50,171 nt of DNA from Gaiellaceae bacterium (GTDB lineage: Bacteria; Actinomycetota; Thermoleophilia; Gaiellales; Gaiellaceae). Location of the stretch: contig DATHGN010000086.1 of NCBI GenBank assembly GCA_035317565.1, positions 1 to 50,171 of the forward strand, read 5' to 3'. The translations under genes and the position numbers were made by a program. Every line of letters starts with the position of its first letter. Position 1 is the stretch's first letter. The notes below the pieces were generated by a model. The model was not told where the DNA came from, did no database searches, and was given only the letters and a program-made list of their open reading frames with translations. Below are positions 5,642 through 21,238 of this stretch, piece by piece.

Positions 5642-5647
5642 TCGCAG

Positions 5648-6379
5648 CTAATCGAGGGTGTGGATCGTGAAGGCGACCGCGAACCCGAGCGTCGTCACGA
5701 CTCCGACGAACTTGCCTCCGTGCTCGTAGGCCTCGGGCATCATCGTCTCCGCGAGCATGGTGAGGATCGCACCACCTGCAAAGGCGAGAACGAAGGCGGT
5801 GGTGCCGGGTGAGGAATCTTGGAAAAGCCCGTAGCCCGCCAGCGAGGCGAGCCCGGAGATGAGTGCGATCGCGGTCCACATCCACAGGATTCGTGACTTC
5901 TTCCATCCGCTTGTGGCGAGGCCGGCGGTCGAGGAGATCGACTCCGGCAGGTTCGAGATGAAGACCGCAGCCAGGTAGGCGGCGCCCACCGCTCCGCCTT
6001 CGAAGATCGTCAGGCCGATCACCATCGACTCTGGGATCCCGTCGAGCACGCTTCCGAGGACGATCGAGAGCGACGAGCCGCCCTCCTGGTTGCCGCTTGG
6101 GTCCTTACGTTGACTGCCCCCGAGGCGGTCGATCAGCCGGTCGCCGCCGAAGAAGACCAGACAGCCGGCGAAGAAACCCCCGACGACCCAGCCGTGACCG
6201 GATGACTTGTCGACCGCCTCCTGGACGAGATCGAACGAGATCGCGCTGATCAGCACGCCCGAGCCGAAGGCCATGATCAGCCCGATCGTGCGCAGGCCGA
6301 TGCTGAAGATCAGCGCAACAATCGCGCCGATCACGAGCGACGAAGCAGCCAGGGTCCCCCAACCGAAGGCGGCACCCAT
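5648..6379 (-). CDS. ZIP family metal transporter (ZupT-like)
   Basis: 243 aa, about 8 TM, motifs DGIPESMVIGL and ISNLPESISS. Confidence 0.85.
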   Translation of the reverse strand: MGAAFGWGTLAASSLVIGAIVALIFSIGLRTIGLIMAFGSGVLISAISFDLVQEAVDKSSGHGWVVGGFFAGCLVFFGGDRLIDRLGGSQRKDPSGNQEGGSSLSIVLGSVLDGIPESMVIGLTIFEGGAVGAAYLAAVFISNLPESISSTAGLATSGWKKSRILWMWTAIALISGLASLAGYGLFQDSSPGTTAFVLAFAGGAILTMLAETMMPEAYEHGGKFVGVVTTLGFAVAFTIHTLD

Positions 6380-6554
6380 CTAGTGCTGCTCTCTGCTCGC
6401 TACGGCAACCGGTGTGGATGCTGCACCGACCGCGGCACCGGCGGGTGTGCTACACGGGCCGAGAAGAAGCTCAGCCTCCTTGCCGTGCGCAGCTACCTCC
6501 ACGGTTGCCCTGTCCGTTTCTGACCCGCCTCGGCGCCACTTCGGCTTGAGACCA

Positions 6555-8153
6555 CTAGTCCAGGGCTTCGATCTCGCTCGGCCGCCACGTCTTGTCGAAG
6601 AACGGCTGCAGCGGATTGTAGAGCCGGAGGATCGGGAACCAGCCCTTGTCGGGGTTGGTTTGCAGCCAGTTCGATTCTTTGCCCTCGGGTGCGGTGGGAC
6701 CGAAGTAGATGTCGGTCGAGCCGTCGGTATTGGTTTCGACCGTACCCGACTGACTGCCGAGGTCCGGCATCCCTTGGTCGGTCTGGAGCATGGAGCGCGT
6801 CTGACGGTCATAGGCCATCACCGACCAGAACCGGCTCTCGGGGATGTCGGGAGGCAACGTGATCCGGTAGGAGCGCGCACCGTCGAGGTAGTCGCCATTG
6901 GAGTCGCGTGTGGCGAAGATGTATTGCGAGCCGATCCCGGTGAGTCGCATACACATCGCCGGAGTGACGCCGGTGTATGCGTAGAAGAACGCGATGCGGG
7001 CGTTGTGCTTGCGGGCGCCGTCGCTCGGGGACTGCTCGACCCCCTTCGGAGTGATCAGCGGCGGGGGTGTGAGGAACTCATAGCCCTCCCACATCATGGT
7101 GAACCACGCCGAGCCCGGGTAGAACGCCCAGCCTTCTTGTTCGCGCGGGTCGAGAGCCAGCGTGCGGGCGGTCGCGTTGCCCACTTTGACCGCGTCGCTG
7201 AGGATCTTGCGCATCCGCGCGTCAGGTGCAAACGGTTGCCCCTTGACGATCCCGACCGAAGCGAGCAGGCCGAGGATCTCGGGGTTTCCCGCCTCCACCG
7301 GCTCCGTTTGTACAACTTCGTTGATGAGGTCCCAGTACGAGTCATCGACCGGCGGCACCGTGTTGAACGACTTGTGGACCGCGTCGACGAAGCGGGTCGG
7401 CGCCGGTTCGGTCGCAGGTGCGAACGGGCCCGCACCGAAGAGGTACGTCGAGACCGGCGACCCCACCCCGCCAGGCTGGTACGGATAGATCTTCAACCCG
7501 TTGCGGATGACTTCGTCAGCCGGTGCGGGGTCGTTGTCAACCTTGAACGCTCGAGCGAACCACCACGCCCGCGTCGTGCGGCAATGCGACACGAAGTACC
7601 CATCGTCCGGTAGCGGACCGTCATAACCCGGTCCGACGATGAGGTAACGCCCGCCGGTACCTCGGTCCCGCCCCGGGAGCCCCATGTCAGTCACCCAGTT
7701 GAACCACATGTCGTCGACCCCACCCAGGATCCCAGTCGGCGGACCCAACGCCGGCAGTTCGACGACCATCGGGCCGTTCGTCAGGTCCAGGAACGAGATG
7801 TAGTAGAGCGTGTCGCAGTTCGCGGTCAGGAACAGCGACTGCGAGTCCATCAACTCGGGGAACGCCAGTACGTCGTTGTCCTCGACGCCGATGCTCAAGA
7901 ATCCTTGGCGCATCGCCGCCAGCGACGCTCCGGGGAAGCTGTTGATGAACGCCTCGACGCCGTGCATGAGGTCGAGGTTGTCGTAAAGCAGCGCAGCCGT
8001 CTCCTCAGACGGTGCGCCGTCGTCGAACTTCAACGTCCCGAGGCTTGTCTCGACCCGATCGGGGGTCGAAATCGACTTCAGCGTCTCGGCCGAAACGCCC
8101 TGCTTCACGGCAACGCCCATCACGCCCTCCTCACTCAGACAATCGAGGCTCAA
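6555..8153 (-). CDS. DUF1254/DUF1214 domain protein
   Basis: 532 aa. C-terminus WFPILRLYNPLQPFFDKTWRPSEIE is typical of DUF1214. Paralog of 8685..10256. The start may be the internal MGVAVKQ (8120). Confidence 0.8.
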   Translation of the reverse strand: MSLDCLSEEGVMGVAVKQGVSAETLKSISTPDRVETSLGTLKFDDGAPSEETAALLYDNLDLMHGVEAFINSFPGASLAAMRQGFLSIGVEDNDVLAFPELMDSQSLFLTANCDTLYYISFLDLTNGPMVVELPALGPPTGILGGVDDMWFNWVTDMGLPGRDRGTGGRYLIVGPGYDGPLPDDGYFVSHCRTTRAWWFARAFKVDNDPAPADEVIRNGLKIYPYQPGGVGSPVSTYLFGAGPFAPATEPAPTRFVDAVHKSFNTVPPVDDSYWDLINEVVQTEPVEAGNPEILGLLASVGIVKGQPFAPDARMRKILSDAVKVGNATARTLALDPREQEGWAFYPGSAWFTMMWEGYEFLTPPPLITPKGVEQSPSDGARKHNARIAFFYAYTGVTPAMCMRLTGIGSQYIFATRDSNGDYLDGARSYRITLPPDIPESRFWSVMAYDRQTRSMLQTDQGMPDLGSQSGTVETNTDGSTDIYFGPTAPEGKESNWLQTNPDKGWFPILRLYNPLQPFFDKTWRPSEIEALD

Positions 8154-8628
8154 GAAGTACCAAGGAACTACTCAGACCTAGTCCGAGCACCGTAGGCGTT
8201 CACGCCGCAACGCAACATCATCCAAACTGTATGAAGCGACTCGTCAGTCTTCTGATTGCGACGGGTGGCCGAAATCCGCTACTGCCTGTTCGCTTCAGCG
8301 GAGCTCGATAACTGTGTCTCCACAGTCGAAGTTCAGGCAAAGGATCCGAAGCCACCAGAGTGTTCAAATGCTGACGCGAATGGTCTCTCGCGGGTGTGTA
8401 AGCAGCCCCGCTTTCGTTGGGTTCTCCTCAGCAGCTCCGGCATGCGTTCACGAATCGATCCCCGCGCTGAGTGGCAAGTGCCTCGCACGACATGCACAAC
8501 AGGTCTGGAAACTGTCGAGTCGCGGCGGCGGGAATCGAGTCCTGCAAGGTTTCAAACGGCTTGGACAGTAGTAAGCGGGACGGAGGTTCATACGATCAGG
8601 ATGAGGAAGCGGGGTTAGGTCCTCTTTA

Positions 8629-8662
8629 CGTTCTCGGCTAAGAGCCGTTCTCGGCTACGAGC
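8629..8662 (+). promoter_or_regulatory. tandem 17-nt direct repeat (2 units) upstream of 8685 CDS
   Basis: CGTTCTCGGCTAAGAGC / CGTTCTCGGCTACGAGC, 16/17 identical, ending 22 nt before the ATG and just upstream of the AGGAGG RBS. Confidence 0.45.
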
Positions 8663-8684
8663 CGGAGTAGGAGGAGGGACCGCA

Positions 8685-10256
8685 ATGCACGCCACTGTTG
8701 CAACCAAGACATCTGTGCCCGAAGCGATCACTACCCCGTCGAGCGTGAAGGCCGGGATCGGGAAGCTGGAGTTCACCGACGGCTACCCGAACGGTAAGAC
8801 CGCGGAGAAGCTGCGTGACCACCTGGACTACCTGCACGGCGTCGAGACGTTCATGAACACCATCCAGGGGGTGTCCGTGTTCGCCATCCGGAAGGGGTTC
8901 CAGGACGCCGGCGTCGCGGATGGTGACGTGCTGATCTTCTCCGAGCTGATGGATTCCCGGTCGCTGTTCTTGACCGCGAACGCCGACACGGTCTACTTCT
9001 GGTCCTTTCACGACCTGTCGCAGGGACCACTGGTGTTCGAGACACCGTCCGAAACGCTGGGCCTCTTCAACGACATCTGGTTCCGCTGGATCAGCGACTT
9101 CGGCCTGCCCGGTGCGGACCGCGGCCAGGGCGGGACATACCTGCTGGTCGGCCCCGAGTACGACGGCCCGCTGCCCGAAGGTGACTACTACGTGCGGCAC
9201 TCGCGCGCCAACCACGTGACCTTGATCGGCCGGGCGTTCATCAACGAGAATCCTGGCGCTGACCCCGCCCCCACCGTCGCCCGGATCAAGGAGCAGCTGA
9301 AGATCTATCCCTACGCCGCCGGGGGCGTCGGCAGCAGTATCGGCTCCTACCTGACGGGCAAGGGCCCGCTCGGCCAGGCAGCCAGTCCGCAGAGCCCCCG
9401 GTTCGTGGAGGGGAGCGGTCTGGCGATGAACACCGTCCCGCCCAACGACTTCGGCCACTACGAGATGCTCGACGCCTTGGTGCAGCTTGAGCCGGCCGAG
9501 GCGCTCGACACCGAACTGGCCGGGCAGTTCGCCGCGATCGGCATCGTCAAAAACGAGAAGTTCGCGCCCGACGCTCGGCTGCGCGGGATCCTCGACGATG
9601 CCGTGGCTGTCGGCAACGCCGCGTCCCGGATGCACGGGATGGGTGCGTCCCCGACCGAGGGCTTCCGCTACTACGACGGCGACTCCGCCTGGTGGAACAT
9701 GCTGTTCGTCGGCGGGTTCGAGTTCACCAACCCGCCGCCCGAGATCACTCCGGAAGGCGTCAAGCCCTACCCGAACCAGGGCGCCCGCCGGTTGCACTCA
9801 CGCACCTCGATGTTCTACACCGCCACCGCCATCACCCCCGCCATGTGCATGCGGCTGACCGGCGTCGGGTCGCAGTACTTGATCGCCAACGTGGACGAGA
9901 ACGGCATACCGTTCGACGGCGCGGAGACCTACCGGGTAAGGCTGCCCAAGGACATCCCGGCGGCCCGGTTTTGGTCTCTCAACGTGTACGACAGCCAAAC
10001 CCGCTCCCTGCTGCAGACCGAGCAGCTCTACCCCCGGGCCGGCAGCCAGGAATACCCCTCACCCGCCGCGGCGGCCGAAGACGACGGCTCCACCGTCATC
10101 TACTGCTCGCCCGCCCGGCCCGACGACGTCGCCCCGGGCAACTGGATCCAGACCGATCCCGAGAAGGGCTGGTTCGTCATTCTGCGCTGCTACAGCCCGC
10201 TGCAGCCCTTCTTCGACAAGACCTGGAGGCCGGGCGAGTTCGAGCTGGTGAGCTAA
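8685..10256 (+). CDS. DUF1254/DUF1214 domain protein (divergent paralog)
   Basis: 523 aa. C-terminus WFVILRCYSPLQPFFDKTWRPGEFE. RBS AGGAGG upstream. Confidence 0.85.
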   Translation: MHATVATKTSVPEAITTPSSVKAGIGKLEFTDGYPNGKTAEKLRDHLDYLHGVETFMNTIQGVSVFAIRKGFQDAGVADGDVLIFSELMDSRSLFLTANADTVYFWSFHDLSQGPLVFETPSETLGLFNDIWFRWISDFGLPGADRGQGGTYLLVGPEYDGPLPEGDYYVRHSRANHVTLIGRAFINENPGADPAPTVARIKEQLKIYPYAAGGVGSSIGSYLTGKGPLGQAASPQSPRFVEGSGLAMNTVPPNDFGHYEMLDALVQLEPAEALDTELAGQFAAIGIVKNEKFAPDARLRGILDDAVAVGNAASRMHGMGASPTEGFRYYDGDSAWWNMLFVGGFEFTNPPPEITPEGVKPYPNQGARRLHSRTSMFYTATAITPAMCMRLTGVGSQYLIANVDENGIPFDGAETYRVRLPKDIPAARFWSLNVYDSQTRSLLQTEQLYPRAGSQEYPSPAAAAEDDGSTVIYCSPARPDDVAPGNWIQTDPEKGWFVILRCYSPLQPFFDKTWRPGEFELVS

Positions 10257-10328
10257 CCGCCGGCGCTGAGCCCGAAGAGAAGCCGAGCGCCTGCGCTCGC
10301 TCCGCTCCTCAGGAACCTAGCAAGGTGA

Positions 10329-10550
10329 TCACGCCACGCCTTCCGGGCTGACGCACGCCGCCACGGCCGCTCGAATCGTCGGGTGGAAGTGGCTCCTGCC
10401 GATCGCCTCGGTCACTCCAGCATCTGCGAACTGTTCCTCCATGCGTGTTCGCAGCCGGGCGACGACCAGCGTGATCTCGTCGCGCCGCAGATGCTTCGCC
10501 AGCTGGTCGAGCGCGTCGAGCCCGGTCGAGTCGACGTTTGTGTCGCGTCG
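10329..10550 (-). pseudogene. remnant of a SulP-type STAS domain C-terminus (no start, no transporter body)
   Basis: Minus-strand frame reads ...VDSTGLDALDQLAKHLRRDEITLVVARLRTRMEEQFADAGVTEAIGRSHFHPTIRAAVAACV-stop. An in-frame stop lies at 10593-10595 and there is no start codon. Confidence 0.5.
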
Positions 10551-10551
10551 C

Positions 10552-10728
10552 TCAGGCCAGGACTGTTCTGTCCGAGACCATGTATGCCGCGATCAAGGCC
10601 AGCGGGAAGAAGAGCAGGCTGAGGACGAAAAAGCCGAAGAAGCTGTGTCCCTTACGCGCGGCGACCCGCGCGGGCCAGAAGGCGATCGCAACCCACACGA
10701 TGATGAAGAGAATCGACCACAACCACAT
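10552..10728 (-). CDS. small two-TM membrane protein (58 aa, below track cutoff)
   Basis: MWLWSILFIIVWVAIAFWPARVAARKGHSFFGFFVLSLLFFPLALIAAYMVSDRTVLA. GGAGG lies 9 nt upstream of the ATG. Preceded by box a and a GATAGT hexamer. Confidence 0.55.
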   Translation of the reverse strand: MWLWSILFIIVWVAIAFWPARVAARKGHSFFGFFVLSLLFFPLALIAAYMVSDRTVLA

Positions 10729-10793
10729 TTTGGACCTCCGTCTCGAGGGGCACGCCGTGTCGTTCCAGCCACTATCCCCTTGAGAACGCGCGA

Positions 10794-10817
10794 CTTCGTC
10801 ATACAGATCGCACGATT
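10794..10817 (-). promoter_or_regulatory. dyad box a (read in gene direction: AATCGTGCGATCTGTATGACGAAG), with GATAGT hexamer at 10771-10776
   Basis: One of five related boxes. There are 21 nt between ATGAC and the hexamer. An extra ATGACGAAG half-site lies at 10821-10829. Confidence 0.6.
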
Positions 10818-10869
10818 CTCTTCGTCATGCTGGTGAGACGAGGTCACCAGTGAACGCACGCCGCGTACG

Positions 10870-11205
10870 CTACTCGAGGGCTTGCTCGACGTCGTAGCCG
10901 AGCGCCAGCGCGAGCTTCGGCGCGCTGACGACGGTACGTGCTGCGCCGATCACCGGTGTCACTGCCTCAAGCGTGGCGACGATCTCGTCGCTCGTCGCTC
11001 CGGCCGCGAGGGCGTACGCCACGACACGCTGGAACGAGGCACTTGCTCCGTCGACGGCGACCGTGGCCGCGACGCGAGCGAGTGCCTCCGTCCTCTCGTC
11101 GATGACGTGTGTCGCGAACGAGCTGCCCTCGATGGCTATCGCTTCGAGCAGCGCATCGTCGTGCAGGGCGAGTCGACGCAGGTGCTCCATGTAGTCGGCC
11201 ATCAC
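10870..11205 (-). CDS. carboxymuconolactone decarboxylase (AhpD-like, CMD) family protein
   Basis: 111 aa with the CMD-like pattern ...DERTEALARVAATVAVDG...AGATSDEIVATLEAVTPVIG. Candidate starts are GTG 11205 and ATG 11202. Confidence 0.85.
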   Translation of the reverse strand: MMADYMEHLRRLALHDDALLEAIAIEGSSFATHVIDERTEALARVAATVAVDGASASFQRVVAYALAAGATSDEIVATLEAVTPVIGAARTVVSAPKLALALGYDVEQALE

Positions 11206-11329
11206 GGCGACCGCGGTGCGTCGTTCCGCTCGGACGCGTCGCTCATGATGCCTCCCTTTGTGGGCATGACGGACTAAGTCCCTGCCGATCCGTCTCCTTG
11301 TCCAGGACTATCGGCGCGGAGGCGCCGCT

Positions 11330-11353
11330 CTTCGTCATACAGATCGCATGAAC
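11330..11353 (-). promoter_or_regulatory. dyad box b (GTTCATGCGATCTGTATGACGAAG), with GATAGT hexamer at 11307-11312
   Basis: Same box and the same 21-nt spacing as box a, but otherwise unrelated flanks. Upstream of the CMD gene. Confidence 0.6.
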
Positions 11354-11381
11354 TTCAACGGTCCGCGCGCTTCGCGACCCT

Positions 11382-13655
11382 TTATGCCTCCTCGAAGAGA
11401 TGTGCAAGCGGTGGGAAGATCGAGCTGTCCAGGAGCCCGACTTCGATCGCTCGTTCGATCGCCTGGCTGCGCGACGAAGCGCCGAACTTGCGATAGATGG
11501 AGACGGCTTCGGTCTTCGCGGTGTTGCGGGAGACGAATAGCCTGCTTGCGATTTCGGGAATCGTGAGATGCGTCGCCAGGTATGGGAGCAGCCGGAGTTC
11601 CGCGCCGGTGAGGCTCATCGCCCACGCCCCGGCTGGCCCGGAGGTCGCCGCCACGCGTTCGTGGAGCGCTCGTGCCTCGTCGACGAGTGAGCCGAGCTGC
11701 GGGCGAAGCTCGAGGACTTGCTCGGTCTCGGTGAGCACGGTGCGGGCGGCGCTTGCTTCACCGAGTGCGAGATGCGCGCGGGTGAGCTCTAGCCCGACCT
11801 GGACCGTGAGCCAGGGTAGGCCGTGGTTGAGTAACGGCCGGAGCCGGTGGGCGCGCGCCAGCGCCATGCGAGCATCATCCACGCGGGCCTCGTGTAGTGC
11901 GACGCGTGCGGTCACGACGAACGCAATAGCGCTCGTCGAATACTCACCGAGCCCCGCCTCTTCGAGGAGCGCAAGGGAGGCCTCTGCATAGACTCGGGCG
12001 TCGCCCCAGGCCCCTTGCCCGGCAGCGAGAAGCGCGAGTTGCGCCTGCGCGACGAAAACGTCTTCGAACGCGCCGACCTGCAACCCCTTCTCGACTGTGG
12101 CGGTCAGGTCGTCAGTCGCACGGTCGCTCGCGCCCAGCAACGCATGCGAAATGCCACGAGCCGCGAGCGCCACCGGGATCCAGGCGCTCGCCGGTGAGAG
12201 CTCCTTCAACGCCAACTCGGCGTCCGCGAGTGCCTGCTCGACCCCGTTTGGCATCATGTGCGCCCGCAGCGTGGCGACCCAGGGTTGGATCGTGGCGCTG
12301 CCGTCCGAGAGTGGGATCGTCGACTTCGCCCCGTCGGCGAGAGCGAGCCAGCGCTCGGCGTCCGCGGGGCGCCCTATCAGCACATGAAACCAGGCGCCGT
12401 AAACGGCGAGTGCCGGAAACAGCACCAACTCATCTTCAGTGAACCATTCGAGCCACTCTTCGACCGTTTCCCTTCTACCGTCGTAATACAGAGGAAGGAC
12501 TAGCTCGTCGATCAATCCGGCCACCGCGGAAGTCTCGCCAGCTGCGTGCCCGTAGACAATCGCGGCCTCCAAGAAGTCGTTGTCGACGCACCAAGCCATC
12601 GCTCGACGGTTGAGCTCGGCCACCAGATCCGGCTCGCTGCGCTCGAGCTCGTTGCGGAGCAACTGGCCGAACAGATGGTGGTAGCGGTACCACTCGAGAT
12701 GCCGGTCGAGCGGCACGACGAAGCAGTTCGCACGTTCGAGTGCTTCCAGCGTGCGAGCCGATCCGGTCGCCTGGAGCACAGCGTCGCACAAGCCGCCGCA
12801 CATCCGATCCAGGATCGAGGTGTACTTGAGGAACCTGGCCTCCGCTTCTGGCAACCGGGAGAGCAGCTCGAGGCGAAGGTACTCGGACACGAACCGGTCG
12901 TCGCCGTCAAAATCCCCGACGCCTGCCGTGCTCGTGGCCCCGGCCTGCAGCGACAACGCTGCGAGGTACAAGCCGGCGGGCCAGCCCTCCGTTCGCTCGG
13001 TCAGTTCGATGACTTCGGCTTCGTCGAGCTCGACTCCTGCAACTCTGAGTAGGTGGTCCGCTTCCTGCTCGTCCATGCGGAGGTCGACGACACCGATCTC
13101 GTCCACTTGTCCCTCCGTTCGCCAGCGTGCAAGCGGCAGCGCCGGCTCCTCTCTGCTCGCGATTGCGATTTGCGAGCCCGCCGGGACGTACCTGAGCAGC
13201 GCCTCGAGCGCATCCAGGCAGGACTGATTGTCGACGGTGTGCAGATCGTCGAGTACGAGCACAACCGCACTCTCGAGCCCAGCTAGCGCACGGCCGACGC
13301 GTGGGACGCGAGTCGCCCAGTTAGACGTCGCCCGTCCTGACAACGACTCGAAGACGTCAGGAGGAAGTGGCGCGATGCCGTGGATCGCGGCTGCGATGTA
13401 GCGCATGAACATCAGGTCGTCATCGTCTTGCCCGTCGAGGGCAACCCACGCGAACGAGCGCGAGTCCGCCTCGGCCCAATGGGCAAGCAGGGTGGTCTTG
13501 CCGTACCCGGCAGGCGCGATCACGGTCACCAGCGGTGATCGCGACGCGCACAGCCGTGCGATCGCGCTCGCTTTCGCGACTGTGCCCGGCCGGCGAAACG
13601 GGGCGGCCAGCTTGGCGTCCACGAGGTCGAAAGGAGCTTCCGCGAGCGTCACCAC
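11382..13655 (-). CDS. large ATP-binding LuxR-family regulator (LAL/MalT-like)
   Basis: 757 aa. N-terminal P-loop APAGYGKTTLL, a long TPR-like middle region, and a C-terminal LuxR HTH LTGAELRLLPYLATHLTIPEIASRLFVSRNTAKTEAVSIYRKFG. Confidence 0.9.
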   Translation of the reverse strand: MVTLAEAPFDLVDAKLAAPFRRPGTVAKASAIARLCASRSPLVTVIAPAGYGKTTLLAHWAEADSRSFAWVALDGQDDDDLMFMRYIAAAIHGIAPLPPDVFESLSGRATSNWATRVPRVGRALAGLESAVVLVLDDLHTVDNQSCLDALEALLRYVPAGSQIAIASREEPALPLARWRTEGQVDEIGVVDLRMDEQEADHLLRVAGVELDEAEVIELTERTEGWPAGLYLAALSLQAGATSTAGVGDFDGDDRFVSEYLRLELLSRLPEAEARFLKYTSILDRMCGGLCDAVLQATGSARTLEALERANCFVVPLDRHLEWYRYHHLFGQLLRNELERSEPDLVAELNRRAMAWCVDNDFLEAAIVYGHAAGETSAVAGLIDELVLPLYYDGRRETVEEWLEWFTEDELVLFPALAVYGAWFHVLIGRPADAERWLALADGAKSTIPLSDGSATIQPWVATLRAHMMPNGVEQALADAELALKELSPASAWIPVALAARGISHALLGASDRATDDLTATVEKGLQVGAFEDVFVAQAQLALLAAGQGAWGDARVYAEASLALLEEAGLGEYSTSAIAFVVTARVALHEARVDDARMALARAHRLRPLLNHGLPWLTVQVGLELTRAHLALGEASAARTVLTETEQVLELRPQLGSLVDEARALHERVAATSGPAGAWAMSLTGAELRLLPYLATHLTIPEIASRLFVSRNTAKTEAVSIYRKFGASSRSQAIERAIEVGLLDSSIFPPLAHLFEEA

Positions 13656-13684
13656 TGGATGCTACGACGGTCCCGGAGGGCTTT

Positions 13685-13708
13685 ATTTCATGCGATCGGC
13701 ATGACCAG
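13685..13708. promoter_or_regulatory. dyad box e (ATTTCATGCGATCGGCATGACCAG), 30 nt upstream of the LAL start codon
   Basis: Best dyad of the five (TCATGC-N5-GCATGA). No ATAGT hexamer at the conserved spacing. Lies between the divergent LAL and DedA genes. Confidence 0.5.
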
Positions 13709-14091
13709 AGCGAATTTGCGGACGGCAGACACCGTGAGCGTCCGACGGCGGCGAGGGACGTGGGACAGCCCGGGAAGCCCCAAACGGGGGTCGACGGTTC
13801 GAGTCCGTACGGAGGGGCTTCCTATTTCTTCCTGCCTAACGGCGGGCTTTTGCTTCGGCCATCGAGGATGGTCCCGGACGGGATCGTCATCGGCCAAGCG
13901 GCGATCTCGCGAACGAAGCTCGCTCCCAGAACCGTCTGCGGCAACGCCACCTTGACCATGCTGCCCGAGGGATGCATCGGAACGGACCGCCTACGACGGC
14001 CGGCAGCGGGGCGCAAATCTCATCCAGAGAGTATGAGGTGCGAGCAACCCTCAAAGTGTTCGATGGACGCCGCGATGGACGAAGGCCGGCA

Positions 14092-14856
14092 ATGAACGAC
14101 GAGGTCCATACATCCGAGAGTCGGCATCACCTGCCGAGCCTACGCAAGCTCATCTACATCGCCCTTGGCGCGCTCGCTCTTCTGTGGGTCGTGCCGGATA
14201 TCGTCGCGGCGCTCGGCTCGATCGACATCCAAGGCGTCGAGCGCCCTTACCTCCTCACATTCCTGTTTGTCTGGTGGGACGCCGTCGTTCCCGTCTTCCC
14301 GAGCGAGTCGCTGCTGAACACGGGTGCGACGCTGATCGCGTCCGGAGACCTGGATCTCAAGCTCTGGCTGCTGATCCTCGTGGGCGCATCCGGCGCGATC
14401 ATCGGCGACAGCACCCTCTACTGGCTCGCGAGGACGGTTGGTCGCAAGCACCTGGCGGCCAAGCTGGAGAAAGCAAAGGAAAACCCCAAGGTCAGCACCG
14501 CGTTCAAGGTGCTCGGCACAAGCGCCCCCCTGGTGATAGTCGCCGGCCGGTTCGTGCCCGGGATGCGGTTCGTGATCGGGGTGACGATGGGCCTGGAACG
14601 CTATCCGTACGCCCGATTTCTCTCGTTCTCGATGCTCGGCGGCTTCCTCTGGGCGGCCTTCAACTGCGGGTTCTCCTACCTCATTGGCTCGACCAGGCTC
14701 GGCGAGTACTCAGTGCTCTCGCTTCTCACATCAGCGGCAGTCACCGGGGGCATTCTCGCCGTCCTCTACAAATCCCTGAAGCGCAGCTATGAGGAGCAGA
14801 ATCAGACAGCAAGCTCCCAGCCGAAGTCCGTCGGGCTGGCCGATCACCCTGCTTGA
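14092..14856 (+). CDS. DedA/VTT family membrane protein
   Basis: Start trimmed to MNDEVHTSE. DedA-like motifs: PVFPSESLL, GDSTLYWLAR, GRFVPGMR. Confidence 0.85.
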   Translation: MNDEVHTSESRHHLPSLRKLIYIALGALALLWVVPDIVAALGSIDIQGVERPYLLTFLFVWWDAVVPVFPSESLLNTGATLIASGDLDLKLWLLILVGASGAIIGDSTLYWLARTVGRKHLAAKLEKAKENPKVSTAFKVLGTSAPLVIVAGRFVPGMRFVIGVTMGLERYPYARFLSFSMLGGFLWAAFNCGFSYLIGSTRLGEYSVLSLLTSAAVTGGILAVLYKSLKRSYEEQNQTASSQPKSVGLADHPA

Positions 14857-14897
14857 GCAACCCGGTGCTCGCAAGGTAACTGGGTTAGCGCGACAAG

Positions 14898-14990
14898 GTG
14901 ACACCGATGATCGGCGCAGCGCGTACCGTCGTTAGCGCACCGAAGCTCGCGCCGGCGCTCGGCTACGACGTCGAGCAAGCCCTCGAGTAG
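14898..14990 (+). pseudogene. fragment of a CMD-family gene (last 30 codons plus stop only)
   Basis: VTPMIGAARTVVSAPKLAPALGYDVEQALE-stop. 88/93 nt identical to the reverse complement of 10870-10962. An in-frame stop lies at 14886-14888. Confidence 0.75.
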
Positions 14991-15031
14991 CTCAGACTGC
15001 ACGCGTTCACCGGTGACCTCGTCTCACCGGC

Positions 15032-15075
15032 TTGACGAATAGTCGCGGCCCGATTTATCACCCGAATCGGGTGAT
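15032..15075 (+). promoter_or_regulatory. candidate promoter (TTGACG-N17-TTATCA) overlapped by a 19-bp perfect palindrome ATCACCCGAATCGGGTGAT (15057-15075)
   Basis: Read directly from the sequence, 64 nt upstream of ATG 15139. Confidence 0.5.
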
Positions 15076-15138
15076 GTTCCATTGCGTCCGACACGCCACT
15101 GTCACGAGCGATCGGTCTTCGGAAAAGGAGCAACTTCG

Positions 15139-15579
15139 ATGGCATCACCAGCGATAACAGAAGACAGGGCAGTCGCATCGTCAGACTCGTGGACCGGGTG
15201 GATCGTCTTCGCCGGGTTCGTGCTGATCATCGTCGGCGCCATCGACGCGCTGCAGGGTCTCGTCGCGATCGTCAAGGACGACTACGTTGTGGCAACGCCG
15301 AAGGGCGTCGCGATCGTCGATGTGACTGCATGGGGTTGGGCGACGCTGATCTGGGGCGTGGTGCTCGTCCTCGCCGGCCTAGGATTGCTCGGCGGGGCCG
15401 GCTGGGCGCGCTGGCTCGCCATCATCGGCGTGGCCGTCAATGCGATCGGACAGATGGCATTCATGGCGAACTACCCGCAGGCGTATCCGCTCTGGAACAT
15501 CCTGATCGTCGCTCTCAACATCGTCGTGCTGTACGCGTTGACCGCGCACTGGCGTGGCTTCAAGAACTCTCTCGCCTGA
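15139..15579 (+). CDS. four-TM membrane protein of unknown function (146 aa)
   Basis: RBS AAGGAG lies 8 nt upstream of ATG 15139. Sequence: SWTGWIVFAGFVLIIVGAIDALQG...WARWLAIIGVAVNAIGQMAFM. Confidence 0.7.
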   Translation: MASPAITEDRAVASSDSWTGWIVFAGFVLIIVGAIDALQGLVAIVKDDYVVATPKGVAIVDVTAWGWATLIWGVVLVLAGLGLLGGAGWARWLAIIGVAVNAIGQMAFMANYPQAYPLWNILIVALNIVVLYALTAHWRGFKNSLA

Positions 15580-15643
15580 TTCAGGACTCCGACGCCGATC
15601 GAGGGACGCGGCTCGTCCGTGTCCCTCGATCCGCGGCTCCGAA

Positions 15644-15667
15644 ATTCGTGCGATCCATATGACGAAG
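15644..15667 (+). promoter_or_regulatory. dyad box c (ATTCGTGCGATCCATATGACGAAG), with GATAGT hexamer at 15686-15691; orphan copy
   Basis: Box, hexamer and ~35 nt of leader are homologous to the box a module, but no ORF follows. Points into the 3' end of the convergent GFA gene. Confidence 0.55.
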
Positions 15668-15752
15668 TCGGGCCGTTCTCGGACCGATAGTCGCTCGAAC
15701 GACACCGCGTACACCTCGAAGCACCTCGAGGCGCTCGCGCGTCATTCGTTGG

Positions 15753-16220
15753 TCACGCTCGTGTCCCGCCTTGTGATGTTCCATCGTGGTCATGATGCCC
15801 CCCCGGCATCGGAAGATCCGAGGGGTTCATCGACCACGGATGCCCGTAGGCTTCGAAGCCGGAAATCATTGGCGGCGGAAACGTCGGGTCGGTGAAGGCG
15901 CCCACCGCGACCCCTACGATGTCCGAAGCGTTGGAGATCTCCCAGTACACGGTCGAACCGCACTCAGGGCAGAAGTGATACGTGCCCCCCATGCTGTCGC
16001 ATCGACTGGCCGGCTTCCCGCTGTCGCTCGGAACCGTCCACGTCGTCGATTGGCCTTCTATCGTCAGGTGCTCGATCGGAAGTCGCGCTTGTACGCTAAG
16101 CACGCTGCCCGTCCGCCTCTGGCAGTCGTAGCACTGGCACAGGGATATGCGCTCTGGGTCGGGCCCTTCGTAGGTAACGGTGAGCTTTCCGCAATTGCAC
16201 GAAGCCTTACGGGTGGCCAT
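15753..16220 (-). CDS. GFA (glutathione-dependent formaldehyde-activating enzyme) family Cys-rich zinc protein
   Basis: SCNCGKLTV...LCQCYDCQRRTGS...FCPECGSTVYW. RBS AGGAGGAG upstream. Confidence 0.85.
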   Translation of the reverse strand: MATRKASCNCGKLTVTYEGPDPERISLCQCYDCQRRTGSVLSVQARLPIEHLTIEGQSTTWTVPSDSGKPASRCDSMGGTYHFCPECGSTVYWEISNASDIVGVAVGAFTDPTFPPPMISGFEAYGHPWSMNPSDLPMPGGHHDHDGTSQGGTRA

Positions 16221-16401
16221 TTCTCCTCCTGTTCGTTGCGACCACGATCATGGCGTTGTCCTCACGGCTTCGATCTCGTTCGGAGTTCGAACGAATCTCC
16301 CTAGAAACGGACACTGGATCAGGTCTCCGTACGCTCTACTTCGCCGCGCACGAATCGCTTTGTTGAGATCTGCACTGACTATGGCCGGAGGTGCGCCTGC
16401 C

Positions 16402-16424
16402 CGCGTCATACGGATGGCATGAAT
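16402..16424 (-). promoter_or_regulatory. dyad box d (ATTCATGCCATCCGTATGACGCG), with CATAGT hexamer at 16378-16383
   Basis: Same 21-nt ATGAC-to-hexamer spacing. About 150-nt leader to the GFA start. Confidence 0.5.
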
Positions 16425-17176
16425 CAGGCATCCACTACGAGGGGACGTCTTCCAAAGCACCCGGCTGGGTGCTCTCTCACACCAGCAAGTCTCCCGACGA
16501 GACGGCGGCGCAATCCCGGCCCGGAGTGCATGCCAGGTGTTTACGCATCTCTCAGGGCCAGACTCTCGTCGGATTTGGGGCCCCAGGGAAGGAGTCCCAC
16601 TTGCTCGGCGTCCCGCGGGGGTGCCCGGGGGATGGCTCCTCGGACCCAAGGATGGGACCCCGAACGCCCGAGGCCTTGCGCGGGGGATGCCCCCCGTCTG
16701 GGACTCCGGCGCGCTCGAGTCCACGCTAGGCGGAAGCGTGCAAGTCGGGTGGCGCCGGAGTGACGGTCAGCAAGCGGATCGACCCGAAAACGCTGACCCT
16801 TTGATGACCCGCGCTCCGTAAACGCTCAAGCCGAGTGCGTTTGAGGAACAACCCTTTGCACGCTGAGTAGAAGACACGTAGGTGCCCCGCTAGGCACCGC
16901 TTCGTCAGGGTCAACAGGACGCTAAGGGGCCGCGTCACTCTGCTGACATGTCCCGCTCAAAGGCCGCCCTCTTCGCCGCTTTACACGGGATCGGGCAAGG
17001 CTCTCGTTCACCGGGCGGCCATCGATAGCTACCGATGGCACTACAAGCAACTACTTAAGCCGAGCCGGCACTTCCGCAAGCCGATCTCCAAGATCTCAAC
17101 CAACGACGTCGCGGCCTTCATCCTCGACCTCAAGAAGTACCGCAAGGCTAACGGCGAGCCGCTGAAGGGGTGGACA

Positions 17177-17995
17177 ATGCGAGGAGCAGTGAGCGTGCTT
17201 TCCGGGATCCTCACGGAGGCGGTCGAGCAAGGCGTCCTTGCTTCGAACCCAGTGCAGAAGGTCTCAAAGAAGAAACGTGAAAGACTCGGCGACGAATCGC
17301 CGAAGCGGGTCTTGACTGCGGATGAAATCGAGCAGCTCGTCGGCGCCGCTGAGCAACGCGGCATCCGTTGGGCAGTGCTCGTCGCGCTCGGCGTGTACGC
17401 AGGCCTTCGGCTCGGCGAAGCCCTCGGCGTTCGGTGGCAAGACATCGATCTCGATACGGGAATGATCCACGTTCGCAGGCAACGCGACTCAAAGACTGGC
17501 GCCTCCCGCGACCTGAAGACCAATGCTGCCAAGCGCGAAATCCCTATCGCCTCCCCACTCCGCCGCCGCCTGGTCGAGTGGAAGCTGCAGAGCAATCATG
17601 CGAAAGAGCACGATACGGTCGTCTCCACTGTCACGGGCCTATCGATCTCACAACGCAACGGCCTCCGCGCGCTCTGTGCGATCGCCGAGTCATGCGCGAT
17701 AAATGTTCCGCGCAACAAGGAAACGGCGGAGCGACCCAATCTTGACTTCCATTCCCTGAGGCACACCTTCGCCTCAGCGATGATCAAGGCCACAAAGGGA
17801 GACGCCGAAAAGGTGCGACGTTGGATGGGACACGCCGACACCAAGGTGCTGCTCGAGCGCTACTCACATGAATTTGAGTCCGTGCGTGGAGGCCGAAGAA
17901 TCGAGGCCGACATTGCCGAAATGGACGCTGCTTACGGTGGCTCTCCCACTCTACGGCCGGTCGCAGCTTCCGCACCACGGCCGGCGCCCGGTTAG
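17177..17995 (+). CDS. tyrosine recombinase/integrase, apparently 5'-truncated
   Basis: Catalytic region AGLRLGEALGVRW...HSLRHTFAS...GHADTKVLLERYSH. Core-binding-domain-like sequence (SYRWHYKQLLKPSRHFRKPISKISTNDVAAFILDL) continues in frame upstream to about 16982, with no ATG/GTG/TTG before 17177. Confidence 0.85.
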   Translation: MRGAVSVLSGILTEAVEQGVLASNPVQKVSKKKRERLGDESPKRVLTADEIEQLVGAAEQRGIRWAVLVALGVYAGLRLGEALGVRWQDIDLDTGMIHVRRQRDSKTGASRDLKTNAAKREIPIASPLRRRLVEWKLQSNHAKEHDTVVSTVTGLSISQRNGLRALCAIAESCAINVPRNKETAERPNLDFHSLRHTFASAMIKATKGDAEKVRRWMGHADTKVLLERYSHEFESVRGGRRIEADIAEMDAAYGGSPTLRPVAASAPRPAPG

Positions 17996-18010
17996 CGAGC
18001 AGACTCTGTC

Positions 18011-18031
18011 GCGGGAGTAATCGAACCCGCG
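18011..18031 (-). repeat. tRNA T-arm-like fragment (degenerate copy of 19012-19037)
   Basis: GCGGGAGTAATCGAACCCGCG against GCGGGAATCGAACCCGCG at 19 kb, 16 nt after the integrase stop. Confidence 0.4.
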
Positions 18032-18179
18032 CAACGTTTCCCTCGTGCCTATGCGCCTGAAACGCGAACGTGCGATGGCCAGCGCGTGCTAAGCGCGCAC
18101 GCCGCAATGAGCCGCGTAGAAAGGCCTAGCTAACTTCCGACTGCGGCACCCGGCATGCCAGAGGCGAGGGCGAGATCGG

Positions 18180-18974
18180 TCACCGCTCTGCAAGGTATGC
18201 GTATCGCGACAGGCGTCGCTCGTGTGCGAGAAGGTGACAAACTGCTAGGAAGCGCTGAACGCCTTCGAACGTCGACTCCCCCTCATCGGCCACCAGTTCA
18301 TCGTGGGATTGCGCGCGGGCAGTGTGCCAGCGACCGGCCATCGAGGCCATATTCTCGGTCAGGTCTTCGCGGCGGATGACTTCGAATCCAGCGCTGGAGA
18401 GCAGCTCCTCGTTTACCGACTGGGCCGAGAAGACGTAGATTCCCACGGCGCTTCGGGTTGCAATCTCGGCGTCGGTGACGAGACCTGTAACGATCGTCGG
18501 GTCGGTGAAGAGAACCCGCGCGCCGGGTGCGGTGACGCGGCGCCACTCGCGGAGGATGTCGGCGCGGTTGGGGAGGTGACACATCACATCAATCGAGATG
18601 ACGGCGTCAAAGCTCTGATCGTCGAACGGCAGGCGAGCTCCGGCATCGACGCGGACAAAACGGGCACGATCGCCGAGCCCGCGCTCCTCGGCGAGTCGAG
18701 TCGCTGTGACGATGCCCTCCTCGAGGAGGTCGATCCCGACGACGCTCGCCCCCTTGGTCTTCGCAAGGTGGAGAGCGGGGCCGCCCGACCCGCAGCCCAC
18801 GTCGAGCAGGCGTGATCCGTCACCGAGAGCGAGCCACTGCGCAAAACACTCGAGCTCGTCGGACGTAACCCAACCGGATTGCCCGAGGTCGTCGCCATAT
18901 GTCGCGCGACGGACCTGGTCGCGAGCGGTGAAACCCGCGTATGCGGACGCATACAGAGGGACATGCTCACCCAC
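18180..18974 (-). CDS. class I SAM-dependent methyltransferase (small-molecule type)
   Basis: Motif I LDVGCGSGGPALHL. Downstream motifs DAVISIDVMCHL and GARVLFTDP. Confidence 0.85.
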   Translation of the reverse strand: MGEHVPLYASAYAGFTARDQVRRATYGDDLGQSGWVTSDELECFAQWLALGDGSRLLDVGCGSGGPALHLAKTKGASVVGIDLLEEGIVTATRLAEERGLGDRARFVRVDAGARLPFDDQSFDAVISIDVMCHLPNRADILREWRRVTAPGARVLFTDPTIVTGLVTDAEIATRSAVGIYVFSAQSVNEELLSSAGFEVIRREDLTENMASMAGRWHTARAQSHDELVADEGESTFEGVQRFLAVCHLLAHERRLSRYAYLAER

Positions 18975-19011
18975 GCGTTTACCTTAGTACTTCCCTTGCA
19001 AGCGCCCTCGA

Positions 19012-19037
19012 AGCGATGGAATGGAGGCGGCGGGAAT
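19012..19037 (-). other. orphan tmRNA/tRNA-Ala-like 3' end (T-arm plus acceptor strand only)
   Basis: Minus strand reads ACGCGGGTTCGATTCCCGCCGCCTCCA: T-stem GCGGG/CCCGC, loop TTCGATT, acceptor strand CGCCTCC (U70-compatible), discriminator A. No matching 5' acceptor strand or anticodon arm upstream. Confidence 0.45.
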
Positions 19038-19074
19038 CGAACCCGCGTAAGATTTCAATCGGGAGAGCGTCCCT

Positions 19075-20940
19075 CTATCCAGCCAGAGTATCGCGCGTGA
19101 CTTGCTGGATTTGGACGCCCATCCGTGCTGCCGGGATCGCGATTACATCCGCAACGCCCCCCGTCGCGGCATCGATCTTGTGCGCAAGTGACGAGGTGCG
19201 AAGATTCAGCGGCGCGGAGACGAGAAGGTGATCTCGGGCTCGTGTCACGCCGACGTAGGCACGACGGATGCCATCTGCGACGTCGCCGCCAGCAGTGAAG
19301 CTAGCTGTCAAGGCGGTTGCTAAGAACACGACCGGAGCTTGGAGGCCTTTCGCGCCAAAGATGGTCATGACTGGCACGGAGCCGGGCATCTCAGCAGGAT
19401 CCGTCTGACTGTCCTCCGAGCGGTCAACGATCCGCTGGAACAATTGAGATGCTGAGCCAGCGTCGGCTCCTGCTGCGAATTCGGTGACGACCGAGAGGTC
19501 AAGGTCGGTTAGCACTAGTTCTCCCGCGAGAAGCTCGACAACATCGACCGCCCCAATCTCTTGCTCCCCACCAAACTGGGCTAACAGAGCGTCTCCCGCG
19601 GCAAGCGGTCGCGCACAAACATCATCCGACTCAGCTACGGAGCGAAGGCAGCGGAGGTAAGTGGCCTCTCCGGCTCCGAGAATCCGCTTGAGGCGGGTAG
19701 GCCCAAGCCCAGGGGTTTCGGCCACGAGCCTTCTCCATGCCATCTGATCCTCAGCACTTATCAGCAGGCGAACACCGGCGCTCAGTAGACGTACGCCGGT
19801 GTCGCCTCCAAGAGGGTTGCGGCGTCTTGGATCGTAAAACGCGAAACCGAGGTTGTCGACTTGCTCAATCGCTTCGTTGAGTGCGCGCAAAAGGTCATCA
19901 ACGAAGCCGGCTGCCACGATGAGAATCTCGTTCGGGCTAATTCCTTCTGCGATGAACTCGCCACAGCGCTGGACGATCCAGCGCGCTTCGATTGCAGGGG
20001 TAGACGCGCCAATTAACTCGACTGTTCCTTCGTCTTCACGGCCTTCCCACGGCTCCAAGGCGGGCCGGTCGAGCCCCTCTAGGGCGGGCAGCGCCTCTGC
20101 CATTCGATTGGCGAGATCACACACGGCCTGCGGACAGCGCGAGGAGCGCCACAGGTAGTCCGGCGCCTCTAATCCGTAGACCTCCGGGAAGCGGTGGAGT
20201 GCAAGCGGATCCGCGGCGCGAAAGCGGTAGATGGACTGGCGGTCGTCACCGCACGCCTCCACGACGGTGTTGAACTGCTCCTTGAACAGCTGCAAAAGAC
20301 GAAGCTCGCCGGGTGTGAAGTCCTGGTACTCGTCGCAGAGGATGTGAGTAGGCGGATCCGCGAGATCGGCACCCTGGTCGATTAGCCGAATCAGGTCGAA
20401 GGCCAGCTCGTCCATCAGCCTGTATCGAAAGAGTTCGCGTTGATGTTGGAAGACCTGAAAGAGCCTCTGCTCCTCGGGTGACATTTCCGCTGGCTCGGCT
20501 TGTTCAGCCCGGAAAGCCGCACCAAGGCGCTGGATGAAATCCCCTATTCGGTCGCGGCGAATCGTGGCGCCGAATGCGAGTTGAGCACCCTGCTGCAAGT
20601 CGAGTCGAACGAGATCGTCCACATCATCTGGTGCAACCACCCGCCGATCCCAAGCCTCGCCCAGTCGGTTTAGCCAAGTTAACGCGAACGAGTGGAACGT
20701 CTGTGCTCGCCCGTACGGCACACGTTCTGCCAAGCTCTCGACAAGCGACCGCGTTAGCGTCAGCAGCGCGATCCCATCTGGATCGACGCCGCATTGTTCG
20801 ACGAGGAACCGAGCGCGGCACTCAATAGTGAAGGTCTTCCCCGTCCCCGGCCCGGCGACAAGAAGCGCATGCTCGGTGGCGTCGCGCTCGATGAAGCGAC
20901 GCTGCTCAGGGAGGGGTTCGGGAACACCCACGGGCGGCAC
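19075..20940 (-). CDS. UvrD/Rep/PcrA-like superfamily 1 helicase
   Basis: 621 aa. Walker A AGPGTGKT, DEYQD, late motif YVGVTRAR. No recognisable nuclease extension at either end. Confidence 0.85.
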   Translation of the reverse strand: MPPVGVPEPLPEQRRFIERDATEHALLVAGPGTGKTFTIECRARFLVEQCGVDPDGIALLTLTRSLVESLAERVPYGRAQTFHSFALTWLNRLGEAWDRRVVAPDDVDDLVRLDLQQGAQLAFGATIRRDRIGDFIQRLGAAFRAEQAEPAEMSPEEQRLFQVFQHQRELFRYRLMDELAFDLIRLIDQGADLADPPTHILCDEYQDFTPGELRLLQLFKEQFNTVVEACGDDRQSIYRFRAADPLALHRFPEVYGLEAPDYLWRSSRCPQAVCDLANRMAEALPALEGLDRPALEPWEGREDEGTVELIGASTPAIEARWIVQRCGEFIAEGISPNEILIVAAGFVDDLLRALNEAIEQVDNLGFAFYDPRRRNPLGGDTGVRLLSAGVRLLISAEDQMAWRRLVAETPGLGPTRLKRILGAGEATYLRCLRSVAESDDVCARPLAAGDALLAQFGGEQEIGAVDVVELLAGELVLTDLDLSVVTEFAAGADAGSASQLFQRIVDRSEDSQTDPAEMPGSVPVMTIFGAKGLQAPVVFLATALTASFTAGGDVADGIRRAYVGVTRARDHLLVSAPLNLRTSSLAHKIDAATGGVADVIAIPAARMGVQIQQVTRDTLAG

Positions 20941-21131
20941 GGTACGGCCGGAGCATTACCGGAGTCAACGCCGGGAGGGTTCTTTCTTACGCGAGCATGA
21001 CTCCCCGACACCCGCCGATCGGGGGTCACGCGCAGCGCCGACTAGGGGCCTGGAGCACACGCGGAGGCTTTTGCTGACCCACGCGCTGACCCAAGCGCCG
21101 AATCTGCCTCTCCCGCCGTCAGTCGCGGCAA

Positions 21132-21157
21132 CAAAAAAGGCCCCATTCCGGGGCCTT
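21132..21157 (-). terminator. intrinsic terminator 3' of tRNA-Gly
   Basis: Stem AAGGCCCC/GGGGCCTT, loop ATTCC, then TTTTTT on the minus strand, 7 nt after the tRNA 3' end. Confidence 0.7.
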
Positions 21158-21164
21158 CACGAAG

Positions 21165-21238
21165 AGCGGATGATGGGACTCGAACCCACGACCTTCTGCA
21201 TGGCAAGCAGACGCTCTAGCCAACTGAGCTACATCCGC
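21165..21238 (-). tRNA. tRNA-Gly (anticodon GCC)
   Basis: Manual cloverleaf: GCGGATG TA GCTC AGTTGGCTA GAGC G TCTGC TTGCCAT GCAGA AGGTC GTGGG TTCGAGT CCCAT CATCCGC T. CCA is not encoded. Confidence 0.93.

Follow-up and report, generated by a model that had tools for sequence, protein, structure and literature searches.

Putative activator boxes of a MalT-family regulator at promoters of an integrative island in a Gaiellaceae bacterium

A contig of 50,171 nucleotides from a Gaiellaceae bacterium (GenBank DATHGN010000086.1; the whole contig is called the window below) carries six copies of a conserved box around the gene of a MalT-type member of the LAL group (LuxR-family large ATP-binding regulators). 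These boxes are most probably activator sites of promoters that have a -10 element and lack a -35 element, and the MalT-family regulator would be the protein that uses them. The activator role is drawn solely from comparison with the MalT-like regulator of Actinoplanes sp. SE50/110 and with MalT of Escherichia coli. An earlier sequence-only reading of the window had reported five copies (a to e); all five were recovered at the positions it gave, but the count was incomplete, as box f (dyad at 8588-8604, plus strand) had been overlooked. The regulator and the strong boxes are located as follows.

8585-8608, plus strand: box f (GGTTCATACGATCAGGATGAGGAA, 29.9 bits), with TACGTT at 8627-8632, offset 39
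10795-10818, minus strand: box a (28.1 bits), with GATAGT at 10771-10776; predicted to drive the gene of a 58-aa membrane protein (10552-10728)
11331-11354, minus strand: box b (37.5 bits), with GATAGT at 11307-11312; predicted to drive a CMD-like gene (10870-11202)
11382-13655, minus strand: regulator of 757 aa, comprising a STAND ATPase, a MalT-type winged helix, a TPR-like sensor and a C-terminal LuxR/GerE helix-turn-helix (HTH)
13685-13708, plus strand: box e (31.7 bits), with the degenerate hexamer CAGACA at 13726-13731; the next gene is DedA (14092-14856), about 390 nt away
15643-15666, plus strand: box c, with GATAGT at 15686-15691; no coding open reading frame (ORF) behind it
16402-16425, minus strand: box d (32.6 bits), with CATAGT at 16378-16383; predicted to drive a GFA gene (15753-16220)

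The pattern TCRTGCSATCNNNATGAC matched without mismatch at 10798-10815, 11334-11351 and 16405-16422 on the minus strand and at 13688-13705 and 15646-15663 on the plus strand. With up to two mismatches, six matches were obtained in the window against 0.57 expected, and none of 100 shuffles gave six; the sixth match, at 8588-8605 on the plus strand, is the genuine extra box f. A 24-nt weight matrix returned six sites of at least 24 bits, as compared with 0.0 per 50 kb in 100 Markov-1 simulations. All six strong boxes were located between 8.5 and 16.5 kb of the window and none in the remaining 42 kb; outside 8.2-16.4 kb, no box of at least 14 bits was found with this matrix. The boxes are confirmed as genuine and far above chance. 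Their consensus reads A-T-T-TCATGCCATCGGTATGAGGAA, with TCAT.C.ATC.GTATGA.G as the conserved positions, and contains the imperfect 17-bp dyad TCATGC-N5-GTATGA, in which two hexamers flank five nucleotides (6-5-6) and the consensus is complementary at positions 0-16, 1-15, 2-14, 3-13, 5-11 and 6-10.

The distance from the box to a downstream hexamer is fixed. In boxes a to d a [G/C]ATAGT hexamer follows ATGAC after 21-22 nt, just as the sequence-only reading had claimed, and among 127 unique boxes the pattern NANNNT stands at offset 38-40 in 117 (39 in 92, 40 in 22 and 38 in 3). At most other offsets it occurs in 0-4 of the 127 boxes, and at offsets 50-51 in 6 and 11. The aligned hexamer consensus is CC-CATA(G/C)T-C, and the 18-nt spacer after the box contains almost no information (less than 0.4 bit per position). 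This constancy supports the proposal that the hexamer is a -10 element, and the proposed absence of a canonical -35 agrees with the finding that no sigma-70-type -35/-10 promoter pattern was present in 8100-16600. With the hexamer as -10 (-12 to -7), the dyad is predicted to span -51 to -35 and to be centred at -43; its predicted end near -35 follows from the -10-like hexamer at offset 39. An RNA element was considered as well and rejected, as Rfam at the gathering threshold gave two tRNAs only and the conserved part lies upstream of the -10. A permissive Rfam scan of 10400-17200 returned just two matches, both far below gathering scores.

Fixed spacing of this kind is also typical of sigma-specific promoters, and GGAA(C) follows ATGA in many boxes, so the box might be the -35 region for an alternative sigma factor of the extracytoplasmic function (ECF) type rather than an activator site. 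However, conservation covers 17-24 nt and is dyad-symmetric, and the distal half, 14-20 nt upstream of the -35, equals the proximal half in conservation. Moreover, the downstream element is of the housekeeping NANNNT type and not of the ECF CGT/GTT type, and no sigma gene is linked to the boxes, which makes this explanation very improbable. A different objection concerns the sign of regulation. The box overlaps the -35 position, as repressor operators typically do too, and from there the regulator could act as a repressor, covering the -35 region of promoters that would be constitutive without it. Yet regulators of the STAND/LAL kind are generally activators. A conserved -35-like element is missing from these promoters, and both E. 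coli MalT and the Actinoplanes MalT activate from the same position (PMC7567727). Repression is therefore regarded as quite unlikely; the regulator would activate, from start sites predicted downstream of the hexamers.

Boxes a and c lie in an inverted duplication (10743-10962 versus 14898-15042 plus 15641-15719, 78-89% complementary). Together with the clustering of the boxes on an island whose cassettes are rearranged between genomes, this would suit a short dispersed repeat or an island recombination site without any role in transcription. Boxes b, d, e and f, however, have nothing in common with a and c except box and hexamer, their flanks being unrelated, and the dissimilarity that had been noted for the flanks of b and d thus held. 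The sites are all intergenic and point to a gene start, they are kept at orthologous positions where the regulators are only 59-77% identical, and the att repeat of the island is a different sequence. Repetitive extragenic palindromes or miniature inverted-repeat transposable elements are further contradicted by the lack of copies in the 42 kb outside the cluster. A repeat origin is accordingly seen as extremely unlikely. The claim that selection rather than plain duplication maintains the boxes was strengthened by comparison: 29 further genomes and some 40 GC-rich metagenome contigs carry the box at orthologous promoter positions, and box and hexamer are conserved whereas the spacer between them is not.

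Homologues of the regulator above 70% identity are found in the thousands in soil metagenomes. The comparison set consisted of 29 genome loci with regulator orthologues of 59-77% identity, 28 of them with upstream DNA; their labels are mostly Gaiellaceae, Thermoleophilia, Solirubrobacteraceae or uncultured Actinomycetes. The matrix gave a bimodal distribution of scores there: background reaches about 14 bits, and 56 sites exceed 24. The matrix scan of related loci, which the sequence-only reading had proposed as a check, revealed co-occurrence of boxes with LAL orthologues: in 24/28 loci, the 130 nt upstream of the regulator start contain a box of at least 24 bits that is oriented away from the gene. 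A second box follows 401-412 nt past the regulator stop codon in 11 loci, behind a co-directional CMD-like gene and before the gene of a 58-63-aa protein. Up to 500 nt from the regulator there are 12.7 sites per 10 kb, as against 0-1.8 (about 0.8 overall) at 1-6 kb, which supports the proposed link between boxes and LAL regulator. Beyond 500 nt the density is about 15-fold lower, and it is zero in the further 35 kb of the window. A metagenome scan with the consensus yielded 89 contigs, namely 65 GC-rich and 24 low-GC ones; the latter lacked any marker family and were taken as chance matches. At least one marker family was present on 39 of the 65 GC-rich contigs and the regulator on 23, and among those of at least 6 kb the regulator was found in 11/17.

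It is conceivable that an unlinked factor, such as a global regulator, binds the boxes and that the LAL gene is a mere member of the regulon, and some boxes are indeed separated by more than 5 kb from the nearest LAL gene (contigs L056, L093, L098 and L116). Against this stand the box beside the LAL gene in those 24 loci and the agreement of the motif with those of MalT homologues from two further lineages. In addition, the LAL gene encodes the only regulator of the island, an earlier statement with which Pfam searches of the island proteins agree. We consider an unlinked factor unlikely; the regulon is clustered and not strictly local, and its linkage to the regulator is strong, not absolute. 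The family found most often behind boxes in related loci is DUF1254/DUF1214. Other recurrent families are the CMD-like protein, the small membrane protein, BrkB/YihY, DedA and AI-2E transporters, as well as DUF6325, DUF1269, a bestrophin-like protein and Na/H exchangers. More symmetric boxes of the Actinoplanes MalT type (TTCATCCAATCTGGATGAA, 13-20 bits) were also observed, 2-6 kb from the regulator (L005 at 10374, L010 at 10891, L019 at 14176 and 14192, L025 at 10291); these may represent sites of low affinity or serve a paralogue. In L019, the 3' end of a second LAL gene lies 720 nt upstream of the regulator.

By sequence, the regulator is a MalT homologue of the MalT/LAL family. Its residues 11-419 match E. 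coli MalT (PDB 8bob) with E=1.4e-37, the Walker A motif PAGYGKTTL aligns with PAGYGKTTL of E. coli MalT, and BLASTP against the latter gave 26% identity (E=4e-41). The Pfam AAA_16 match (E=2.8e-07, 31.6 bits) is slightly under the cut-off of 32.6 bits. GerE reaches 28.1 bits against a cut-off of 23.5 over residues 680-735, which align with the C-terminal domain of MalT. Precomputed Pfam annotation assigns the winged-helix family WHD_MalT (PF25873) to the regulator itself and TPR_MalT (PF17874) to many homologues more than 70% identical to it. The assignment does not extend to MalT proper, the activator of the maltose regulon: the NCBIfam MalT model (NF003420) gave 290.8 bits over residues 11-649, under the equivalog cut-off of 537, and no mal-type genes were found in the island or the related loci by gene family annotation.

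In the proposed mechanism, two LuxR-type HTH domains of the regulator would bind the 17-bp dyad, presumably within an ATP- and ligand-induced multimer. The promoter-proximal half GTATGA(G/C)G is predicted to end at about -35, and the bound regulator would therefore take the place of the -35 contact and recruit RNA polymerase to the -10 element (CATA(G/C)T, 22 nt further downstream). Targets would be island-borne genes, mostly for membrane proteins: DUF1254/DUF1214, the 58-aa protein, the CMD-like protein and GFA, with DedA probably and a ZIP-BrkB-BrkB gene row possibly among them. A regulon role in an envelope or ion-homeostasis response, suggested by the mostly membrane-protein targets, is speculation.

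Several observations weigh against the proposed activator sites or their assignment to this regulator. The weight matrix was trained on loci that were later scored with it, although the pattern search and the hexamer spacing are independent of the matrix. Six of the 17 box-bearing GC-rich contigs of at least 6 kb have no regulator gene within 4-7 kb; five of these six contain DUF1254/DUF1214, and three have GFA, DedA or DUF7144 too. The HTH is about 27% identical to that of E. coli MalT, a comparison that is compatible (T-x-K-T in both) but too weak for an argument about specificity. For ACSP50_3915, the Actinoplanes regulator, the paper contains neither an electrophoretic mobility shift assay nor a footprint that would show direct binding (PMC7567727). 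Finally, two boxes of the window depart from the pattern: box e lacks a proper -10, as CAGACA is missing the final T, and no gene stands behind box c, where the 58-aa gene is absent and GFA converges on the site.

The genes behind the individual boxes correspond in part to those named earlier: the 58-aa membrane protein (box a) and GFA (box d) hold, whereas the CMD/AhpD-like protein behind box b is assigned only weakly, as the 110-aa product scored 17 bits with Pfam against a cut-off of 23. Orthologous small-protein genes come after a box, like the gene behind box a, in five other loci (L011, L020, L021, L023 and L026). Box b is absent from most orthologous loci, in which the CMD-like gene directly follows the regulator; the 89%-identical relatives L068 and L075 retain it. 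Upstream of the CMD-like gene, a 14-codon ORF (MSDASERNDAPRSP) with a strong ribosome-binding site (AAGGGAGG) was observed at 11195-11237 on the minus strand. The stop codon of this ORF, TGA, shares bases with the ATG of the CMD-like gene (GTGATGG); the ORF could be a leader peptide, a means of translational coupling or a frameshift remnant. The GFA gene behind box d was assigned by Pfam with 79 bits, and a GFA gene of L089 has a box at a distance of about 80 nt. The dyad of box f ends 80 nt before the ATG of a DUF1254/DUF1214 gene (8685-10256), which box f is predicted to drive. This gene and a second, divergent paralogue (6555-8153, minus strand) constitute a pair in the window, and the 8685-10256 protein has a relative (E about 2e-45) in VPA0735 of Vibrio (PDB 3vb9, 2p3y), whose structure is solved but which is uncharacterised.

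Box c was correctly described as lacking a gene, since no coding ORF follows it in the window. The box belongs to the inverted copy of the segment around box a, and on contig L114 the same segment (3' end of DUF7144, box, leader) runs on into the 58-aa gene. Box c is a relic, a promoter whose gene was lost. In the 89%-identical relatives L068 and L075 the gene order is regulator, box, CMD, DUF7144. Three further features belong to this description.

8217-8236, minus strand: tentative, weak seventh box, TCATAC-N5-GGATGA, of the Actinoplanes type, with TACGGT at 8189-8194 (minus strand) at the right distance
13660-13665, minus strand: predicted -10 of the regulator's own promoter, TAGCAT, 6 nt before the second GTG, presumably of the leaderless type
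14898-15719, plus strand: inverted second cassette copy with the CMD 3' end, the DUF7144 gene (15139-15579), box c and its 5' leader (inverted repeats I1, I2 and I4)

The seventh box (dyad 8218-8234) scored 13.8 bits in the orientation that faces the DUF1254/DUF1214-ZIP-BrkB-BrkB gene row (8153 to 3795), which it precedes, and 20.8 bits in the other orientation.

The role of box e had been left between autoregulation and control of the divergent DedA gene. The box adjoins the regulator start, although at 33 nt from the GTG and not at 30 as reported, and the orientation away from the regulator is the same in the window as in the 24 related loci. In most regulator orthologues a TAG[C/G]AT-like hexamer precedes the start codon by a few to about 10 nt, and box and hexamer are separated by about 30 to 100 nt depending on the locus; because of this variation, a class II role of the box at the regulator's own promoter was rejected as a general rule. 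As the box reads away from the regulator, whose own -10 sits at variable distance, control of a divergent gene appears favoured over autoregulation, for which specific support was not found. In the window and in L068, the box centre lies about 42-45 nt from the predicted leaderless start of the regulator, and a local effect on the regulator promoter is possible in these two. The target of box e is uncertain: it reads toward DedA, orthologous DedA promoters have the box with CAGACT, and the 89%-identical relative L068 has the same box and CAGACA with no obvious gene adjacent.

Two other elements were observed between box e and DedA. A weak box scoring 14.3 bits (TCATCCAGAGAGTATGAGG) is situated at 14020-14036 on the plus strand, 56 nt ahead of the DedA start (ATG at 14092). 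In its left half it fits the orthologous DedA boxes; the central ATC is absent and NANNNT does not occur at the usual offset. A hairpin at 13772-13823 on the plus strand possesses a tRNA T-arm-like core, GACGGTTCGAGTCCGTA (GGTTCGAGTCC), and a 9-bp stem, GGAAGCCCC/GGGGCTTCC, and it begins just past the end (13750) of homology to the 89% relatives. It was rejected as a tRNA-like element, as neither ARAGORN nor Rfam called it and its fold is no better than that of shuffles (z = -1.15).

The genomic context is an island inserted in a tRNA gene.

3093-21238: integrative island, delimited by tRNA-Gly(GCC) at 21164-21238 (minus strand) and a 45-nt direct repeat at 3093-3137, with an integrase at 17177-17995

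The 3' 45 nt of the tRNA-Gly(GCC) gene are repeated at 3093-3137 in the same orientation with 45/45 identity, and the gene at 17177-17995 encodes a tyrosine integrase (Pfam 81.7 bits). It follows from repeat and integrase that an integrative island of 18 kb holds the regulator, every box and all of the target genes. Part of the island, at 14-21 kb, has a lower GC content. Around the regulator lie the two DUF1254/DUF1214 genes and those of the 58-aa membrane protein, the weakly CMD-like 110-aa protein, DedA, DUF7144 and GFA; a ZIP transporter and two BrkB/YihY genes are found further left. The island also holds a methyltransferase (18180-18974) and a UvrD-like helicase (19075-20940). In another contig (L121, ENA ERZ27257258), regulator, DedA and DUF7144 are identical and the gene set to the right differs, with a SulP/STAS sulfate transporter, a SnoaL-like gene and an ion-channel gene in place of GFA and integrase. 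Judged by these gene contents, L121 shows a cassette exchange on the right side of the island. Elsewhere in the window, a tRNA-Trp(CCA) (28616-28689, plus strand) was located inside the first-start ORF of a sigma-70 family gene (27576-28766, minus strand), whose real start probably lies further downstream.

Of the LAL/MalT-like regulators, which number thousands, very few have known operator sites, and the 127 natural variants define one candidate LAL operator at base resolution, promoter geometry included. They also provide a common regulatory context for families of unknown function (DUF1254/DUF1214, DUF7144, the 58-aa membrane protein and the CMD-like protein). Regulator and target promoters travel together on the integrative island. 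A wider and tentative view, which we hold to be possible but doubtful, is that of a self-contained mobile regulon: regulator, boxes and targets would move between genomes as one tRNA-integrating island, and the regulator would be an actinobacterial MalT-like activator of ancient origin that responds to a signal other than maltodextrin and switches on shuffled single-gene promoter cassettes for membrane and envelope proteins. The box architecture and some targets (BrkB/YihY, AI-2E, DUF1269) common to Micromonosporaceae and Thermoleophilia would be part of this view.

Among known systems, lux boxes had been named as the analogue of the sites described here. The geometry of class II activators is indeed shared, as the quorum-sensing activators LuxR and TraR also employ a GerE-type HTH and a dyad site centred near -42 to -43, but the closest analogue is the MalT box. 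LuxR and TraR comprise about 250 aa with an acyl-homoserine-lactone-binding domain, and Pfam detected no autoinducer-binding domain on the present regulator; the lux box measures 20 bp and has another sequence, as compared with 17 bp here. The regulator and its boxes thus fall outside the quorum-sensing LuxR/lux box group. The Streptomyces LAL proteins (PikD, SCO0877, SCO7173, SCO6993 and similar) are likewise large ATP-binding LuxR-family regulators of actinobacteria, but they control secondary-metabolite genes, unlike the regulator of the island. No shared operator motif was found in the Streptomyces LAL literature examined, and nothing relevant in the literature on DUF1254 plus DUF1214 or on other LAL operators.

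E. coli MalT is a homologous STAND ATPase with a LuxR-type HTH, and its promoter-proximal box has the same orientation and position, replacing the -35. In the malP promoter of the K-12 genome, GGATGAGGAAGG is followed by CAAACT 22 nt after GGATGA; the consensus here, GTATGAGGAAGG, is followed by CATA(G/C)T after 22 nt, an equal spacing from which CAAACT is inferred to be the malP -10. The proximal half G(T)ATGA(G/C)G agrees with the MalT core GGA(T/G)GA at 5/6 positions and with the extended GGGGA(T/G)GAGG at 8/10, and a few sites have GGATGA. In contrast to the proximal box and distal direct repeat of two boxes at E. coli MalT promoters, as summarised from work of 1991 cited in PMC7567727, a single tight inverted repeat is present here. 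The E. coli protein is also longer (901 versus 757 aa), and it targets maltodextrin genes, which the targets here are not; the regulator here falls under the MalT equivalog cut-off.

The most extensive parallel is offered by Actinoplanes sp. SE50/110, in which the MalT-like regulator ACSP50_3915 is encoded within a 51-gene region (Droste et al. 2020, PMC7567727). Its deletion lowered the transcription of 42/51 cluster genes, overexpression was tested too, and no maltose-metabolism gene responded (PMC7567727). The motif TCATCC-5nt-GGATGA overlaps the -35 there; measured from its 3' end, the distance to 17 mapped start sites is 34.4+/-1 nt, and the region, which includes DUF1269, AI-2E and BrkB/YihY genes, is rearranged between relatives (PMC7567727). 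Several differences stand out. The half-site is G[T/C]ATGA here and GGATGA in Actinoplanes, one base per half-site, with a few GGATGA variants here, and the central ATC and the 3' GGAA are conserved only in the boxes described here. The host is a Gaiellales/Thermoleophilia-type bacterium, amylase and glucosidase genes are lacking, unlike in Actinoplanes, and DUF1254/DUF1214, CMD-like, 58-aa protein, DedA, GFA and DUF7144 targets were not reported for the latter. Start sites and dependence on the regulator were measured in Actinoplanes, whereas here they are inferred. In both systems, the gene of a LuxR-family MalT-like regulator lies inside the cluster that it controls or, here, would control, and a 6-5-6 palindrome overlaps the -35 and leaves about 34-35 nt between its 3' end and the start, a distance predicted in the present case. 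Both have one box per promoter at many separate promoters, mostly poorly characterised membrane-protein targets (BrkB/YihY, AI-2E and DUF1269 included, which stand behind boxes in related loci here and appear in Table S3 of PMC7567727) and a gene order shuffled among relatives with suspected horizontal transfer. The promoter type is already described in Actinoplanes and E. coli, and no new mechanism is involved; with the present boxes, the MalT promoter type of Actinoplanes would extend to a soil lineage that is deep-branching and largely uncultured.

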